64,000 bases of DNA from an uncultured Candidatus Rokubacteria bacterium. GTDB lineage: Bacteria; Methylomirabilota; Methylomirabilia; Rokubacteriales; CSP1-6. The notes under the pieces were generated by a model. That model saw only the letters and a program-made list of their open reading frames with translations, was not told the DNA's origin and made no database searches. The stretch's first letter is position 1. Each line of letters starts with the position of its first letter. The position numbers were made by a program, and so were the translations under genes. The stretch spans positions 12,287-76,286 of the forward strand of contig CAVVEU010000028.1 of assembly GCA_963747235.1 (NCBI GenBank), read 5' to 3'. Shown here one piece after another: positions 14,382 to 35,235 of this stretch.

Positions 14382-15411
14382 TGACTGTCCAGAAGAAGAA
14401 CGCACGACTGGCTCGCGCTGAACGGTCGAGGAGCCGATCGAGCCCGATCTGCCGATCTGCGACCCGCATCATCATCTGTGGGACGGTGAGACCGCCCGCG
14501 TGGTCCCGCGCTATCTCCTCGACGAGATCCTGGAGGACACGCGGGCCGGCCACAACATCGTCTCCACCGTGTTCATCGAGTGCGGCGCGATGTTCAAGCC
14601 CGACGGGCCGGAGGCCCTGCGCGCGGTCGGGGAGACCGAGTTCGTGAACGGCATCGCGGCGATGAGCGCCTCCGGCCTCTACGGCCCGACGCGCGTCGCC
14701 GCCGGCATCGTGGGCACCGCGCAGCTCCGCCTGGGCGCGGCCGCGGCGCCGGTGCTCGACGCGCAGATCGCGGCCGGGGGCGGGCGCTTCCGCGGCATCC
14801 GCCTGGGGGCGGCCTGGGATGCCGACCCGGCCGTGGGCAACCACCGCACCCGCCCGCCGCAGGGCATGCTCGGGCACGAGGACTTTCGCGCCGGCTTCGC
14901 GCTGCTGGCGCCGCGACGGCTCACGTTCGAGGCGTGGTGCTATCACCGCCAGATCCCCGACGTGACCGCGCTGGCCCGCGCCTTCCCCGACACCACGATC
15001 ATCCTCGACCACTTCGGCGGCCCGCCGGGTGTCGGCTCCTACGCGGGCCGGGCCAAGGAAGTCTACGCGGAGTGGCGCGGCTTCATCACCGAGCTCGCCA
15101 CCTGCCCCAACGTGGTGGCCAAGCTGGGCGGCATCAACATGGAGGTCAACGGCTTCGCCTGGCACGAGCGGCCCCGGCCGCCGTCCAGCCAGGAGCTGGC
15201 CGACGCGACGCGGCCCTACTACGAGTACACCATCGAGAAATTCGGCGTGGACCGCTGCATGTTCGAGTCCAACTTCCCGGTGGACGCGGTGAGCTGCAGC
15301 TACACCGTGCTCTGGAACTCGTTCAAGCGCCTCACCGCGAAGTACTCGGCGGCGGAGAAGGCGAAGCTGTACCACGATACCGCCGCGCGGGTGTACCGCC
15401 TCACCGGCTGA
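14381..15411 (+). CDS. amidohydrolase_2 family protein (frameshift near N-terminus)
   Basis: DPHHHLWD, LDHFGGP, KLGG, CMFESNFPVD. Confidence 0.85.
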
Positions 15412-15433
15412 TCCCGCCGGGCCGGATCGACGG

Positions 15434-15463
15434 TTGACAGGCCCGCCCGGCCCCTGCTACGGT
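15434..15463 (+). promoter_or_regulatory. sigma70 promoter with extended -10
   Basis: TTGACA-18 nt-(TGC)TACGGT. Confidence 0.65.
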
Positions 15464-15469
15464 CCGCGT

Positions 15470-15678
15470 GTTCGACCGTGGTAACCGTCCGAGACCGCTC
15501 CGGCCCATCCTGAGACGGCGCGAGCGCAGGTCGTCCGTGATCGGCTTCCCGGGGCGACGGGCCCGTCAGGCCCGGGGAAGCGTGTATGCCTCGAAGGCGA
15601 GGTCTTCCGGACGTTCATCCATCACGGGCTCATCCGGCCCAGAACCCTACCCTGTCCGACGCGTTCGGGAGGTGCCCC
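15470..15678 (+). ncRNA. candidate structured cis-regulatory leader RNA (family not recognised)
   Basis: Nested helices 15476-82/15621-27, 15486-91/15608-13 and 15492-96/15601-05 enclose three hairpins; lies between the promoter and the ABC SBP start. Confidence 0.55.
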
Positions 15679-17299
15679 ATGACCGCTCCCATCCGACGGC
15701 GCCCTCTCCTCGTTGCCCTGATGACGTTCACCATGCTCGCGGGCTCGCTGCTCGCGGCGACATCCGCCGTGGTCCAGGCAGCGGAGACGCCGCGCCGCGG
15801 CGGGGTCCTGCTGGCCGTGATCGGCGCGGATCCGCCGAGCCTCGACCCCCACCAGGAGAGCACCTTCGCCAACATCCAGCTGGTGGCGCCGCTGTACAAC
15901 ACGCTGCTCCATCTCGATCCCTACAACTATCCCGAAGATCATCGGCGACCTCGCCACCGAGTGGAAGATCTCGCCGGACGGGCTCACCTACACCTTCAAG
16001 ATCCATCCGGGCGTCAAGTTCCACGACGGCTCCCCGCTGACCGCGGCCGACGTCAAGGCCACCTACGACAAGATCATCTTCCCGCCGCAGGGCGTCCGCA
16101 GCGTGCGGCAGAACGCCTACACCGCGGTCGCCCAGGTCGAGGCGCCCGACGTCACCACGGTGGTGTTCAAGCTGAAATTCCCCTCCTCGTCGCTCCTGTC
16201 CAACCTGGCCTCGCCCTGGAACGTGATCTACCCGAAGAAGTACCTCGACCAGGACCCCAACTACTTCAAGACGCACGCGATCGGCTCCGGCCCCTTCAAG
16301 TTCAAGAGCTACACCCGGGGCGCCACGTTCGAAGGCGAGCGCAACCCGGGCTACTGGGTCAAGGACCGCCCCTACCTGGACGGGTACAAGTTCTTCATCA
16401 GCCCGGAGACCTCGGTGCGGGCGGCGGCCGTCCGCTCGGGGCGCGCCTACGTGGAGTTCCGGGACCTGCCCAGCGCGGAAGTGGACGCGATCCGCAAGCA
16501 GCTCGGCGACAAGGTCACGGTGCAGGAGACCGCGATGACCGGCCAGTGGGGCATCGCGATCAACAACACCGCGAAGCCGTTCAACGACGTGCGGGTGCGC
16601 AAGGCGCTCACCCTGGGGATCGATCGCTACACGATGGCCAGGGTGCTGCAGCCCCTCACCGGGCTCCGCTACGTGGGCGGCCTGATGCGCCCGGGCTCGG
16701 AGTGGGCGCTGGCGCCGGCCGAGCTGGAGAAGCTCCCCGGCTTCGGGCGCGACATGGACAAGAACCGGGCGGAGGCGCGCAAGCTCCTCGCCGAGGCCGG
16801 CTATCCCAACGGCCTCAAGGTCGTCCTGAAGAACCGCAACGTGAAGCTGCCCTACCAGGACTTCGCGGTGTTCCTCATCCAGGAATGGCGCAAGATCGGG
16901 GTCGAGGCCGAGAACCGGCCGCTCGAGACCGCGGCCTGGTTCAACGACGGGCAGAACACCGGGAACTTCGAATTGATCGTCGCCCCCACCGTGGAGTTCA
17001 TGGACGACCCCGATCAGTTCCTCGGCCGCTACGCGACCGGGAGCACCCAGAACTGGGGCCGCTTCTCCGACCCCCGGGTCGACGATCTCTTCTCGCGACA
17101 GGCCCGGTCGCTCGATCCGGCCGAGCGCAAGCGGCTCATCCACGAGATGGAGCAGCTCGTCCTGGAGAACGCCTACGCCATGCCCGGCCTCTGGTGGTCG
17201 CGCAACCTGGTGCACTGGACCAAGGTGAAGAACTACATCGCGCCGCCGACCCACTACACCAACCAGCGGCTCCAGGACGTCTGGCTCTCCGAGGACTGA
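15679..17299 (+). CDS. ABC transporter substrate-binding protein, peptide/nickel family 5 (frameshift near 15935)
   Basis: Signal peptide, DPPSLDPH, VKFHDGSPLTAADVKAT, GSGPFKF, PFNDVRVRKAL. Confidence 0.9.
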
Positions 17300-17320
17300 T
17301 CGGTCAGGGCCGAGGGCGGC

Positions 17321-18279
17321 ATGCGCACGTACCTGACCAAGCGCCTCCTGCTGATGATCCCGACCCTGCTCGGGGTGGCCGCGGTGGTGTTCGTCATCAT
17401 GCGCGTCATCCCGGGAGACGTGACGCTCCTCATCCTGGGCGGCGACCAGACCGGGCGGATCGATCCGAAGCAGGTGGCGGCGATGCGCCAGGAGCTCGGG
17501 CTGGATCAGGCGCTCGCGGTGCAGTTCGGCCAGTGGCTGTGGGGCGTGCTCCGCCTCGACTTCGGCAACTCGCTCTGGACGGGACAACCGGTCATCGAGG
17601 AGGTGCTCATCCGCCTGCCGCTGAGCCTCGAGGTGGCCATCCTGGCCACCATCGTGTCCGTGCTGCTGGCCATCCCGCTCGGCATGCTCGCGGCGGTGCG
17701 GCAGGATACGTGGGTGGACTACGTCATCCGGGTGCTGAGCATCGGGGGCCAGGCCATCCCGTCGTTCTGGGTCGGGATCCTCGTCATTCTCTTCCTGGTG
17801 ATCTACTTCGGCTGGGGCCCGCCGCTCGAGTTCACCCCGCCGTGGGTGGACCCGTGGGCCAACTTCCAGCAGCTCGTCTGGCCGGTGGCGACCATCGGCT
17901 ATCGCTACGCGGCGGTCACCACCCGGATGACGCGCTCCACCGTGCTCGAGGTGCTGCGCGAGGACTACATCCGCACCGCGTGGGCCAAGGGGCTGCGGAA
18001 GCGCGAGCGGTGGTCATCCGCCACGCGCTCAAGAACGCGATGCTACCGGTGATCACCCTGATCGGCACCGAGTTCGCCTTCCTCATCGGCGGCCTCGTGG
18101 TGACCGAGACCGTCTTCACCCTGAACGGGGTGGGCCGCTTCGTGGTGGACGCGGTCGCCCATCGCGACTACCCGGTGGTGCAGGCCCTCGTCTTCCTGAT
18201 CGCGCTCTGCTTCGTGGTCGTCAACCTCCTGATCGACCTCACCTACGCGTGGCTCGACCCGCGCATCCGGTACCACTGA
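17321..18279 (+). CDS. ABC permease DppB/OppB-like (frameshift near 18000)
   Basis: EDYIRTAWAKG, HALKNAMLP, YAWLDPRI. Confidence 0.9.
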
Positions 18280-18280
18280 G

Positions 18281-19184
18281 ATGAGCGTCGACAGCTCGCT
18301 CATCGGCGCCTCCGCGACCGCGCCCCTGGCCCCGCGGCTCACCTGGCCCGAGCAGGTGTGGACCTTCGCCCGGGCCAAGCCGCTCGGCGCGGCGGGGGCC
18401 TTCATCATCCTGGTCATGCTGCTCGTGGCCCTGCCTCGCTCCCGCGCTCGCGCCCTACGACCCGTACGTGCCCGACTACGCGGCCCAGTTCGCCCGGCCC
18501 TCCGCGGACCACTGGTTCGGGACCGACGAGTTCGGGCGCGACGTGCTGAGCCGCATCATGTACGGCGCGCGCATCGCGCTCTTCGTGGGTTTCGTCGCAT
18601 CCTTCGCGGGCTGCTCGCTCGGCGGGCTGCTGGGGGTCGTCAGCGCCTACTGCGGCGGCACGATGGACCTACTCCTCGAGCGGGTGATGGACGTGCTGCT
18701 CGCCTTCCCGCAGCTGATCCTGGCCCTCGCGGTGGCCTCGATCCTCGGGCCGGCGGTGCCCAACGTGGTGATCGCGGTGGCGATCCCGATCATCCCGCGG
18801 GCGGCCCGGGTGGTGCGGGCCACCGCGCTGTCCATCAAGGAGAACCAGTACGTGGAGGCGGCCCACGGCCTCGGGGCCTCGCACTACCGCGTGGTCGGGC
18901 AGCATCTCCTCCCGAACGTGTTCGCCCCCTACCTGATCATGCTGACCGCGCAGCTCGGCACCGCGATCCTCGCCGAGGCCGCGCTGTCCTACCTGGGGCT
19001 GGGCGCCGCGGAGCCGACGCCCTCGTGGGGGCTCATGCTCTCGGGCTCTGCGCCGTCCTACGCCGAGAAGGCGCCGTGGATCGGTCTCTTCCCCGGCATC
19101 GCGATCAGCCTCGCCGTCTTCGGCTTCAGCCTGTTCGGCGACTCCCTGCGGGACGCGCTCGATCCGAAGCTGCGCGGCAAGTAG
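18281..19184 (+). CDS. ABC permease DppC/OppC-like (frameshift)
   Basis: HWFGTDEFGRD, YVEAA, GDSLRDALDPK. Confidence 0.9.
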
Positions 19185-19192
19185 CCGACGAC

Positions 19193-19759
19193 CTAGCGCA
19201 CGCGGCGACCGATCCGGCTCCACCGCGTGTTCCCGCCGGAATCCGAGGACCAGTAGACCCAGGTCGCCAGGCCAATGATCTGGGTTTGCGCCAGCGGCCC
19301 CCAGTGGCGGCTGTCCTCTCCCGCGTTCCGGTTGTCGGCCATCACGAAGACGTGACCCGACGGGATCTCGAGTCGCTCCACGTCCTTGGCCGCGCGCACC
19401 TCGTCGGTGAAGTCCGCGTAGGGCTCGGCGAGCGGCCGGCACCCGTCCATCCGGGGCTCGCAGTTGATGTACACGTCGCGGCCCTGGACGACGATCTCCT
19501 CTCCGCCCAGGCCGACGATCCGCTTCACCAGCGTCTCGCTCGCGTCGCTCGGGTCGGTGAAGACGACGAGATCGCCCCGCTTCCGCCAGTGCGCGGCCTT
19601 GTCCATCATGACGTAGTCCCCCACCAGGAGGGTCGGGGCCATGGACGTGGACGGGATCCAGACGCCCTCGAAGCGGTGTCGCACGGCGAGGGGCAGCGCG
19701 ACGACGAGCGCGAGCACTCCGAGCATGACGACGATCCAGAAGACGCGGCCGATGGCCAT
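19193..19759 (-). CDS. lepB: signal peptidase I
   Basis: IPSTSMAPTL (Ser), LVKRIVG (Lys), DNRNAGEDSRHWG. Confidence 0.85.
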   Translation of the reverse strand: MAIGRVFWIVVMLGVLALVVALPLAVRHRFEGVWIPSTSMAPTLLVGDYVMMDKAAHWRKRGDLVVFTDPSDASETLVKRIVGLGGEEIVVQGRDVYINCEPRMDGCRPLAEPYADFTDEVRAAKDVERLEIPSGHVFVMADNRNAGEDSRHWGPLAQTQIIGLATWVYWSSDSGGNTRWSRIGRRVR

Positions 19760-19809
19760 GCGATCACTATAGACGGACAGCGGCCAGGAGAGGCATGCTT
19801 CATGGCGAG

Positions 19810-20661
19810 ATGAGCACTCCCGCCCTCGACGAGTCACGAGATCGCGTGCTGAAGACGGCCGGAGACGGCGGCATCGTCCTCGCCCACGCCACCGCGGCGC
19901 GGGCGGTGGCGGCCTGGACGCTGGCGCCGGCGCCCCGGGATCCGGCCCGCCATGTCGAGACGGCCCACACGCAGGCCCGCCGTCATCTCGCGCGTCTCAC
20001 CCGGCACGATCCCGCCCGCGACGTGCTGGCGGTCATGACCGACGAGCTCTTCTTCCGATTGACCGACGCCCGACCGGCGCCCCTCACCGCGCCCGCGAGT
20101 GTGAGCCGATTCACCTACACGCCGCGCAAGGCCCTGCGCCGCGTGCTCGATCACGCGCTGGATCATCTGAACCAGATCGACCAGTGGCTGGCGTGGCAGC
20201 ATCACGGGGTCGTCCCGGTGCCGACCGATGGATGGGTCCCGTCCACGGTGACCCTGCCCGATGATCGCCTGCCCCTGGCCCCGGCCGATCTCGACGCGTG
20301 GCTCTGGCGCATCGACCAGGCCACCCGGCTCGTCGTCCAGCGGGCGGCGGCGCTCAGCCGGGCCGAGCTGGATTGGCTGCCGCCCGATGGAGGCTGGCCT
20401 CTCCGGCGCGTGCTCCATCACCTGGCCCGGTCGGAGCGTCTCTACGCGGCCGCGCTCGACGAGGCGCTGCTGGACGACGATCCGGCGCGCCGCTACGAGG
20501 AGGCGAGCCGGCGCCTCGACGACGGCGTGCGCGCGGCCCGGGATCGCGGGCGGGACGAGTCGATCGTCTATGCCGGTCTCTACGGCGTGCTGCAGACGCC
20601 GGAAGAGGTGGTGGCCCTCGTGCTCACCATCGAGGGCGAGCTGCTGGCCCAGGCCCCTTGA
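19810..20661 (+). CDS. DinB-like superfamily protein
   Basis: YTPRKALRRVLDHALDH and GWPLRRVLHHL, two DinB-like repeats. Confidence 0.6.
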   Translation: MSTPALDESRDRVLKTAGDGGIVLAHATAARAVAAWTLAPAPRDPARHVETAHTQARRHLARLTRHDPARDVLAVMTDELFFRLTDARPAPLTAPASVSRFTYTPRKALRRVLDHALDHLNQIDQWLAWQHHGVVPVPTDGWVPSTVTLPDDRLPLAPADLDAWLWRIDQATRLVVQRAAALSRAELDWLPPDGGWPLRRVLHHLARSERLYAAALDEALLDDDPARRYEEASRRLDDGVRAARDRGRDESIVYAGLYGVLQTPEEVVALVLTIEGELLAQAP

Positions 20662-35157: not shown

Positions 35158-35235
35158 TGGCGGGCTCGACGGGATTTGAACCCGCGACCTCTGGATTGAC
35201 AGTCCAGTGTGCTAACCAGGCTGCACCACGAGCCC
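35158..35235 (-). tRNA. tRNA-Asp (GTC)
   Basis: GGGCTCG/CGAGCCC acceptor stem, CTGGA-CTGTCAA-TCCAG anticodon arm, GTTCAAATC T-loop, CCA end. Confidence 0.97.

Follow-up and report, generated by a model that had tools for sequence, protein, structure and literature searches.

We analysed a 64,000-nt stretch of DNA (the window) from an uncultured Candidatus Rokubacteria bacterium and found a conserved leader upstream of a three-gene operon that encodes two permeases and the family-5 solute-binding protein (SBP) of a peptide/nickel-type ABC importer. From comparison with related genomes we conclude that this is a real, previously undescribed and narrowly distributed cis-regulatory leader, and that it probably controls the transporter operon. 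Concerning its architecture and general mechanism, we favour with moderate confidence a lineage-restricted leader in which a conserved RNA of about 115 nt is followed by an upstream open reading frame (uORF) that would be coupled to the SBP start. The elements in question are the following, where SD denotes a Shine-Dalgarno sequence.

15434-15463, + strand: putative promoter with -35 box TTGACA (15434-39), 18-nt spacer, TG (15455-56) and -10 box TACGGT (15458-63)
15470-15485, + strand: inverted repeat H1, consensus GUUCG-N6-CGAAC, degenerate in the window (GTTCG...GTAAC)
15495-15503 (CCGCUCCGG) with 15549-15557 (CCGGGGCGA), + strand: P2, a long-range helix of 9 bp (5' and 3' strand, respectively)
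15514-15535, + strand: hairpin P3, i.e., GACGGC (15514-19), a 10-nt loop and GUCGUC (15530-35)
15544-15581, + strand: hairpin D with outer stem GCUUCCC (15544-50) / GGGAAGC (15575-81)
15559-63 with 15569-73, + strand: inner hairpin of D, GGGCC/GGCCC
15586-15678, + strand: putative uORF, AUG CCU CGA AGG CGA GGU..., encoding M-P-R-R-R-G
15655-15682, + strand: small hairpin UCCGA/UCGGG, overlapping the SD GGGAGG (15667-72)
15679: AUG start of the SBP, overlapping a UGA at 15680-82
15679-19184, + strand: putatively regulated operon of SBP and two permeases

A BLAST search of positions 15300-16100 against 41 related genomes returned 11 same-genus loci, whose matches begin in the intergenic region. 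Among these 11 genomes, the leader (15466-15603) shows 82-87% pairwise identity compared to 35-40% in its flanks. The mean pairwise identities of the individual segments are:

upstream: 0.35
promoter: 0.74
leader core (15466-15585): 0.82
uORF head (15586-15603): 0.87
spacer (15604-15660): 0.40
SD and start: 0.76
signal-peptide codons: 0.69
mature SBP codons: 0.90

We read this profile as purifying selection acting on the leader core. In most of the 11 loci the similarity is gone upstream of the promoter, i.e., synteny is lost there, which argues that the leader moves together with its operon.

To describe the distribution, we used a covariance model based on sequence alone (R1) and a structured one (R2). 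R1 detects the leader in 12 of the 21 genomes of the genus, with one copy each, and adds three more genera among 151 genomes of the order (G044, G085 and G042, the last with a copy truncated after about 85 nt). Order-wide R1 matches with E values of 0.002-0.05 per genome were counted as noise, and the weak matches L035 and L039 were discarded because a leader-like context is missing on reading. R2 added nothing credible in 151 genomes of the family; its match L284 lies inside an ORF of 433 aa and was rejected. When contigs from metagenomes and genomes were scanned for a pattern and the matches passed to nhmmer, 38 of 213 loci proved to be true leader copies, which contribute 18 new sequences. 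Thus, the leader is known from four genera of one family plus soil metagenomes. It always stands before the same three-gene operon, its orientation and its pattern of distances to the SBP start stay the same, and SD and SBP start follow each true copy wherever the locus extends that far. Identical copies occur in public metagenome-assembled genomes labelled Candidatus Methylomirabilota or Rokubacteria. A leader identical to Methylomirabilota copies is also held by L239, labelled Verrucomicrobiia bacterium, which may be a binning or labelling error. We rejected a repeated or mobile element, since the leader is single-copy in its own genome and gives one match per genome.

No Rfam family accounts for the leader. 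At gathering score, the only match of Rfam 15 in the window is a tRNA (35161-35235, a gene on the minus strand with 72.1 bits). With the threshold relaxed to E<=10, three chance-level matches are found for 15350-15760 (best E 0.64, 17 bits compared to a gathering score of 59), and the 14 homologous loci (43,412 bases) give a single unrelated match outside the leader (E 5.5). Among the families that do not match the leader are TPP, FMN, SAM, cobalamin, glycine, c-di-AMP, ykkC-type and T-box. In the literature, the supplements of which were outside the search, we found no description of a riboswitch in Rokubacteria nor of a relevant noncoding RNA in Methylomirabilota.

Pairings were counted in an alignment of 31 sequences (A3), which omits the partial match L130 and the truncated L038. 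Among long-range pairings, P2 is kept best: 96.8% of its alignment cells are paired, all nine pairs are present in 24/31 sequences (8/9 in the window), and its strands occur in 16 distinct combinations, including CCACUUCGG/CCGAGGUGG and a series from U.G via U-A to C-G. Its 5' strand can instead fold into the local hairpin GACCG-CUC-CGGCC (15493-15505). In 11-13 of the 31 sequences, a G-to-A change at 15552/15553 keeps a U-A pair in P2 and leaves A.C in the rival local pairing of the 3' strand, 'D mid' (15552-55/15570-73), which is broken in these sequences and which we dropped. With P2, 93.6% of the cells of the structure are paired compared to 31-52% when partners are slid. P3 is paired in 96.1% of its cells and lacks covariation because it is nearly invariant; alternatively, its GACGG can pair with CCGUC (15485-89). 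Each pair of H1 is kept in 26-28 of the sequences, and L060 lacks the repeat. The 9-nt sequence GACCGCTCC forms an exact direct repeat at 15493-15501 and 15681-15689, i.e., it makes up the P2 5' strand and recurs in codons 2-4 of the SBP just after the ATG, such that the bulge strand could pair with the SBP start region, too. The ACCGCTCC that follows the SBP ATG is kept in some relatives only.

When folded singly, nearly all of 22 distinct sequences form the outer stem of D, which shows matched indel and substitution variants (GCUUCCC/GGGAAGC, GCUCUCCC/GGGGGAGC and CUCCC/GGGAG). Its 3' arm carries the SD-like GGGGAAG (15574-80), i.e., the 3' strand of a kept stem is a conserved GGGG(A)AG, whose end lies 5 nt short of the uORF AUG at 15586. 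Since CCGGGGCGA, the 3' strand of P2, appears as the 5' bulge of D in single-sequence folds, P2 and D together would form a pseudoknot. A CCUCCC anti-SD within 15504-15510 was also considered and is not kept in the alignment. The covariation score of the alignment is 0.139 compared to 0.121 for shuffled alignments and is reached by 4/500 shuffles; two-sided changes are seen in 6 pairs, where 3.0 are expected (18/500 shuffles). Within the leader, sequence conservation is much stronger than covariation.

The second part of the architecture is the uORF. As for a short leader ORF of the leader-peptide type, a start codon is present in all 31 sequences (25 ATG, 5 GTG, 1 TTG), and conservation is limited to the first six codons; the remainder is a variable spacer. 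The window's frame continues into the SBP ORF; that of 20 out of 29 relatives ends at the UGA of the AUGA that contains the SBP start, and L036 stops earlier. For the frame count we used 29 sequences, omitting L013, where the motif is lacking, and L139, where the locus ends. The uORF-to-SBP distance modulo 3 is 0 in 8 and 2 in 21 of these sequences, which show 14 distinct lengths, and it is 1 in none. On a tree for which the spacer was left out, Fitch parsimony requires at least 16 length changes, 7 by multiples of three and 9 not, none of which enters the third frame (chance roughly 0.002 by our own estimate). Read in this third frame, 25/29 sequences have no stop as far as the sequence extended, i.e., 31-103 codons past the SBP start, and the other four stop after 42-79 codons. 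These statistics argue for translation of the uORF.

The head of the uORF encodes arginine at codons 3, 4 and 5 in 30, 27 and 25 of the 31 sequences, respectively. Its codons are all rare in the ORFs of the window (30 ORFs, 9862 codons), where CCU, CGA, AGG and GGU make up 2.3%, 3.6%, 2.4% and 1.9% of their synonymous sets. Variation within the head occurs at third positions (CCU/CCC, CGA/CGC, AGG/AGA), with two of these sites left free by the pattern used in the contig scan, which makes this weak evidence. In two soil runs, the leader is covered by DNA contigs with a likeness of about 98-99%. One nucleotide of the window, at 15622, is absent from them, such that their spacer measures 92 and falls into the class coupled via AUGA, compared to 93 (in frame) in the window. 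The in-frame state of the window may thus be an indel error.

Despite only 40% identity, the spacer is C-rich and G-poor in 29/29 sequences, with mean fractions of 0.45 and 0.24, respectively; only 1% of the 60-nt windows in the 64 kb are as C-skewed. The genome also encodes rho (710.6 bits, cut-off 509), such that both features of uORF leaders controlled by Rho, a C-rich, G-poor stretch and a rho gene, are present. The arrangement YCCG...CGGGAGG of the small hairpin at the SBP's SD recurs in relatives.

The original prediction called the promoter strong. Its -35 box is perfect, and GTTGACA and TGnTAnnnT, i.e., TGnTA(C/G)GGT, are kept in 11/11 same-genus leaders. A scan for E. coli-type promoters reports 0 sites at the leader because the TG-extended -10 box TACGGT matches only 3/6 positions of that consensus. 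The predicted transcription start is near 15469-15471. Between 15300 and 15800, 0 intrinsic terminator-like sites were found. A single contig from a metatranscriptome library (run X17, 490 nt) spans 15435-15911 and thus bridges leader and SBP start. It is the sole RNA-library contig over the leader and a weak hint, given that assembled contigs cannot reveal transcript ends, strand or level. RNA run X15 gives almost no cover over 15414-15948.

Taken together, we propose the following mechanism. The conserved promoter would drive a transcript whose first ~115 nt (about 15470-15585) form the conserved non-coding RNA. The outer stem of D (GCUUCCC/GGGAAGC) would bury the SD-like GGGGAAG, such that the folded state of the 5' domain would set how often the uORF is initiated. 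Ribosomes that initiate there would translate across the C-rich, G-poor spacer and then either stop at the AUGA or enter the SBP. Translation of the uORF would raise operon expression by termination-reinitiation and by opening the small SD hairpin at the SBP, and it would shield the C-rich spacer from Rho. The trigger would be a metabolite, arginyl-tRNA supply or a protein. A related logic is known from the Salmonella mgtA leader, where a Mg2+-responsive RNA and the proline-rich uORF mgtL govern Rho-dependent termination. Common to the two systems is a structured leader for sensing, joined by a short uORF; translation of the latter decides, or here would decide, between alternative folds and Rho access. 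They differ in gene class and organisms, there is no sequence or Rfam match, and only the uORF described here appears to be coupled to the start of the main ORF.

The architecture above departs from the hand-made fold of the original prediction, which described a long closing arm enclosing a multi-stem junction and an internal segment that competes for the same strands. By reading and repeat search, we found all its complementary segments in the sequence:

15535-41 with 15621-27: arm pair CCGTGAT/ATCACGG
15486 and 15532 with 15608: arm pair CGTCCG/CGGACG
15544-55 with 15570-81: inverted repeat I1, GCTTCCCGGGGC/GCCCGGGGAAGC
15655-59 with 15665-69: TCCGA/TCGGG, beside the SD GGGAGG (15667-72)

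Comparison with relatives retains only part of them. Of the closing arm (15476/15621, 15486/15608, 15492/15601), the 3' half falls into the variable stretch 15604-15660, which shows a mean pairwise identity of 40% and is deleted in L008, L012, L013 and L014. That is, the arm and the competing pairing of the GGUCGUCCGUGAU segment with the 3' region are specific to the window and not conserved, and we dropped this switch architecture. Since the arm vanished on comparison, hand-folded helices in DNA of 72% GC have to be considered unreliable. The proposed hairpin GCC-UCGAA-GGC is better read as the first codons of the uORF: AGG->AGA breaks its pairing in 5 sequences and CCU->CCC in 2, both uncompensated. 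A shifted register of it shows one C-G to G-C flip in sequences from outside the genus, but has an A.A mismatch in 25/31. The local element GCUUCCC/GGGAAGC and the short hairpin at the SD (UCCGA/UCGGG) withstand the comparison. The same is true for the central claim of an unrecognised leader upstream of a peptide/nickel-type (SBP_bac_5) importer, which is conserved and, given the Rfam results, still novel. For the relatives, conservation is clear and covariation is modest, i.e., the 6 two-sided pairs given above.

Several observations weigh against the favoured architecture. The original prediction named folding energy relative to shuffled sequences as a check, and this check failed: the minimum free energy (MFE) of 15462-15690 is -94.2 kcal/mol compared to -99.7 ± 4.9 kcal/mol for dinucleotide shuffles (z +1.12), 174/200 of which fold as well or better; the minus strand gives z +0.15. 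On the level of the alignment, the RNAalifold energy of 29 aligned leaders (without L060 and L076) is not significantly below that of column-shuffled controls (z -0.6 to -1.3, with 17-52/200 shuffles as good). Such close sequences, with a mean column identity of 82%, leave the covariation thin, and related sequences may beat shuffles without any structure, as the covariation tool warns. Furthermore, the pattern by which 17/31 sequences were selected holds TCCCG, GGCCCGGGGA and C-CG-A constant, such that those columns cannot vary in these sequences. With close sequences and part of the 3' half fixed by selection, the power is low, and part of the two-sided changes in H1 stems from rows with non-homologous 5' ends (L060, L076). 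The GGGGAAG is only a weak SD.

Further points concern the uORF, the element as a whole and its transcript. Absence of stops within the uORF had to be dropped as support, since 28, 27 and 29 of 29 sequences are open in the three frames. Given the fixed columns, an ascertainment effect explains part of the variation at every third base in codons 2-3; among the 12 same-genus sequences free of this bias, 3/4 variable sites of codons 2-5 are third positions (p about 0.11, own binomial estimate). The R-R-R run is missing in the two leaders from outside the genus (L036, L037), which read M-A-R-I-P-S-P. Five orthologous loci (L015-L019) manage without the element, which is therefore dispensable; they have the same promoter type, with GTTGACA and the TG-extended -10 box kept, and the same SBP behind a leader of 60-80 nt. 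Together with L038 and L060, they suggest that the leader was lost or decayed repeatedly: L015 retains a CCGAGAC remnant, L038 only the first ~85 nt, and L060 is without the 5' palindrome. Finally, the -35 box, where the X17 contig begins, lies about 35 nt upstream of the predicted start, such that the contig may reflect read-through from the upstream gene, DNA carry-over or another start site.

Given this evidence, we weighed other explanations. A metabolite riboswitch, in which the ~115-nt 5' domain is an aptamer for the importer substrate or a related metabolite and the ligand fixes the pseudoknot and the hairpin masking the ribosome-binding site (RBS) of the uORF, is possible though not probable. 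It would account for long, nearly invariant and apparently unpaired runs (e.g., AACCGUCCGAGACC and GACGGCG) beyond what SD masking needs, for the pseudoknot-like topology with a purine-rich 3' strand and for a self-contained system, i.e., the operon is not accompanied by a regulator gene and has a different upstream context from genome to genome; given the Rfam results, it would be new. These points are opposed by the restriction to a single gene family in four genera, which offers no second gene context to hint at a ligand, by the weak structural statistics of both fold and alignment, and by an SBP without specific equivalog, whose solved relatives (AgaA, GsiB/YliB-like, DppA) bind unrelated ligands. 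SAM-II, preQ1-II and guanidine-III are riboswitches whose pseudoknots sequester the SD. The leader has in common with them a purine-rich ribosome-binding strand that forms the 3' strand of a helix and would be pseudoknotted to an upstream strand. No Rfam class scores here even at E<=10, the domain is larger, and the masked site would serve the uORF and not the main gene. The more specific version, a riboswitch class limited to Rokubacteria/Methylomirabilota with a pseudoknotted aptamer for the substrate of an orphan family-5 importer that gates the coupled uORF via the AUGA overlap, we regard as doubtful. The weak folding statistics also speak for conservation at the DNA level or through a protein partner, i.e., the conserved region would harbour transcription-factor operators, such as GTTCG-N6-CGAAC at the start site, or an RNA bound by a protein or small RNA (sRNA). 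Here, the palindrome overlaps the predicted start, the classic position for a repressor, and sequence conservation far exceeds covariation. We nevertheless consider this quite unlikely: the 140 nt 3' of the -10 box far exceed the needs of an operator, the window has a degenerate palindrome and L060 has none, with the remainder kept, and with no other copy of it at <=1 mismatch in 5 genomes an operator regulon was dropped. Besides, the kept helices use G.U pairs, which are possible only in RNA of the + strand, and the frame constraint of the spacer is a signature of translation rather than of DNA binding.

That constraint also argues for the uORF translation needed by an arginine-supply sensor of the leader-peptide type, in which ribosomes slow down at CGA AGG CGA when charged tRNA-Arg is scarce and thereby alter RNA folding or Rho access. 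The M-P-R-R-R head of the same-genus leaders, the arginine counts and low shares of CGA and AGG among arginine codons reported above, and the synonymous substitutions observed (CGA/CGC, AGG/AGA) fit such a sensor. We rate it as unlikely, because the leaders L036 and L037 have only one arginine, a ribosome stalled at codons 3-5 would mostly block its own start site, alternative hairpins 3' of the codons are lacking with a variable spacer and no terminator, rare codons are expected of any non-coding frame in this genome, and the conserved 115 nt upstream stay unexplained. Classical ribosome-dependent attenuators of the trpL, hisL and pheL type also have a short leader ORF with a run of codons for one amino acid before a related operon. 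In our case, no pair of terminator and antiterminator hairpins and no U-tract follow the ORF (0 terminator-like sites in 15300-15800), the region past the uORF head varies in its sequence as well as its length, and the conserved RNA precedes the regulatory codons instead of following them. A precedent is the Salmonella speF leader, where orf34 with two consecutive arginine codons senses arginine. Once orf34 is translated, Rho no longer terminates transcription at a CU-rich stretch, and a structure that hides the speF RBS is opened (PMC6386406). A long leader and a short uORF with consecutive (rare) arginine codons are common to both, and the R-R-R head, the C-rich spacer, the rho gene, the small SD hairpin and the lack of an intrinsic terminator are the counterparts here. 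The two differ in that there is no sequence relation, that our uORF follows a conserved domain of ~115 nt and is not near the 5' end as in speF, and that it overlaps the main start codon with its stop or is in frame with the main gene. Moreover, only its first six codons are conserved, the arginine run is missing in the copies from outside the genus, and the system described here is known from sequence alone. An independent sRNA gene, which the original prediction had offered as an option, or a non-functional relic kept by recent descent would suit the narrow distribution and the loss or truncation in some orthologous loci. Both are very improbable: no terminator-like site separates leader and SBP, the leader is always fused to the same operon, to whose SBP start it keeps one orientation and one pattern of distances, the core shows 0.82 identity in the same genomes in which the adjacent spacer decayed to 0.40, and the X17 contig, as weak evidence, bridges leader and SBP.

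The genomic context of the leader is as follows.

15412-15678: non-coding gap of 267 nt between the end of an Amidohydro_2 gene (15411) and the SBP ATG (15679)
15679-17299, + strand: SBP_bac_5, the family-5 SBP (Pfam), with SD GGGAGG at 15667-72
17321-18279, + strand: permease 1 (Pfam)
about 18282-19184, + strand: permease 2 (Pfam)
19193-19837, - strand: Peptidase_S26 (signal peptidase), convergent, the next gene after the operon

The window has a GC content of 71.8% and belongs to a genome of 5.57 Mb in 42 contigs (88% complete). Within the gap, GC content at third positions (GC3) gives no coding signal. The original prediction contrasted the gap with mostly tiny ones nearby, which is only roughly true, since the neighbouring gaps in the ORF list range from about 1 to about 230 nt. 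Neither in the window nor in L271 does the SBP-permease-permease operon contain a gene for the ATPase (ATP-binding subunit). Unrelated genes follow it: in the window the convergent one for the signal peptidase, in L271 one for an MFS transporter. GC3 plots and Pfam halves that lie in different frames reveal changes of reading frame near 15931 in the SBP and near 17997 in permease 1. The orthologues in L271 (4676-8164) are intact, with an SBP of 539 aa and permeases of 320 and 300 aa. At the sites of both breaks, the soil DNA contigs lack 1 nt (15931) and 2 nt (17997), which would restore both frames; thus, the breaks are probably indel errors of the assembly or strain-specific lesions. For the SBP, no NCBIfam equivalog scores above its cut-off. 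Its best solved relatives are AgaA (1.2e-46), GsiB/YliB-like proteins and DppA. With no equivalog at cut-off and solved relatives that bind unrelated ligands, no ligand can be deduced from the SBP, and we dropped an assignment via its family.

Rokubacteria and Methylomirabilota, uncultured bacteria of soil, possess very many orphan ABC importers of family 5, and we found no described RNA regulator from these bacteria. For such a lineage derived from metagenomes, the frame statistics provide evidence for uORF translation that needs nothing but sequences, and the approach can be reused. If the leader were indeed a new riboswitch class gating a uORF, it would represent a two-stage expression platform in which the main gene is controlled indirectly. 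A leader that travels with one importer operon offers a handle on the control of that operon, and its ligand, if found, would also point to the importer's cargo.

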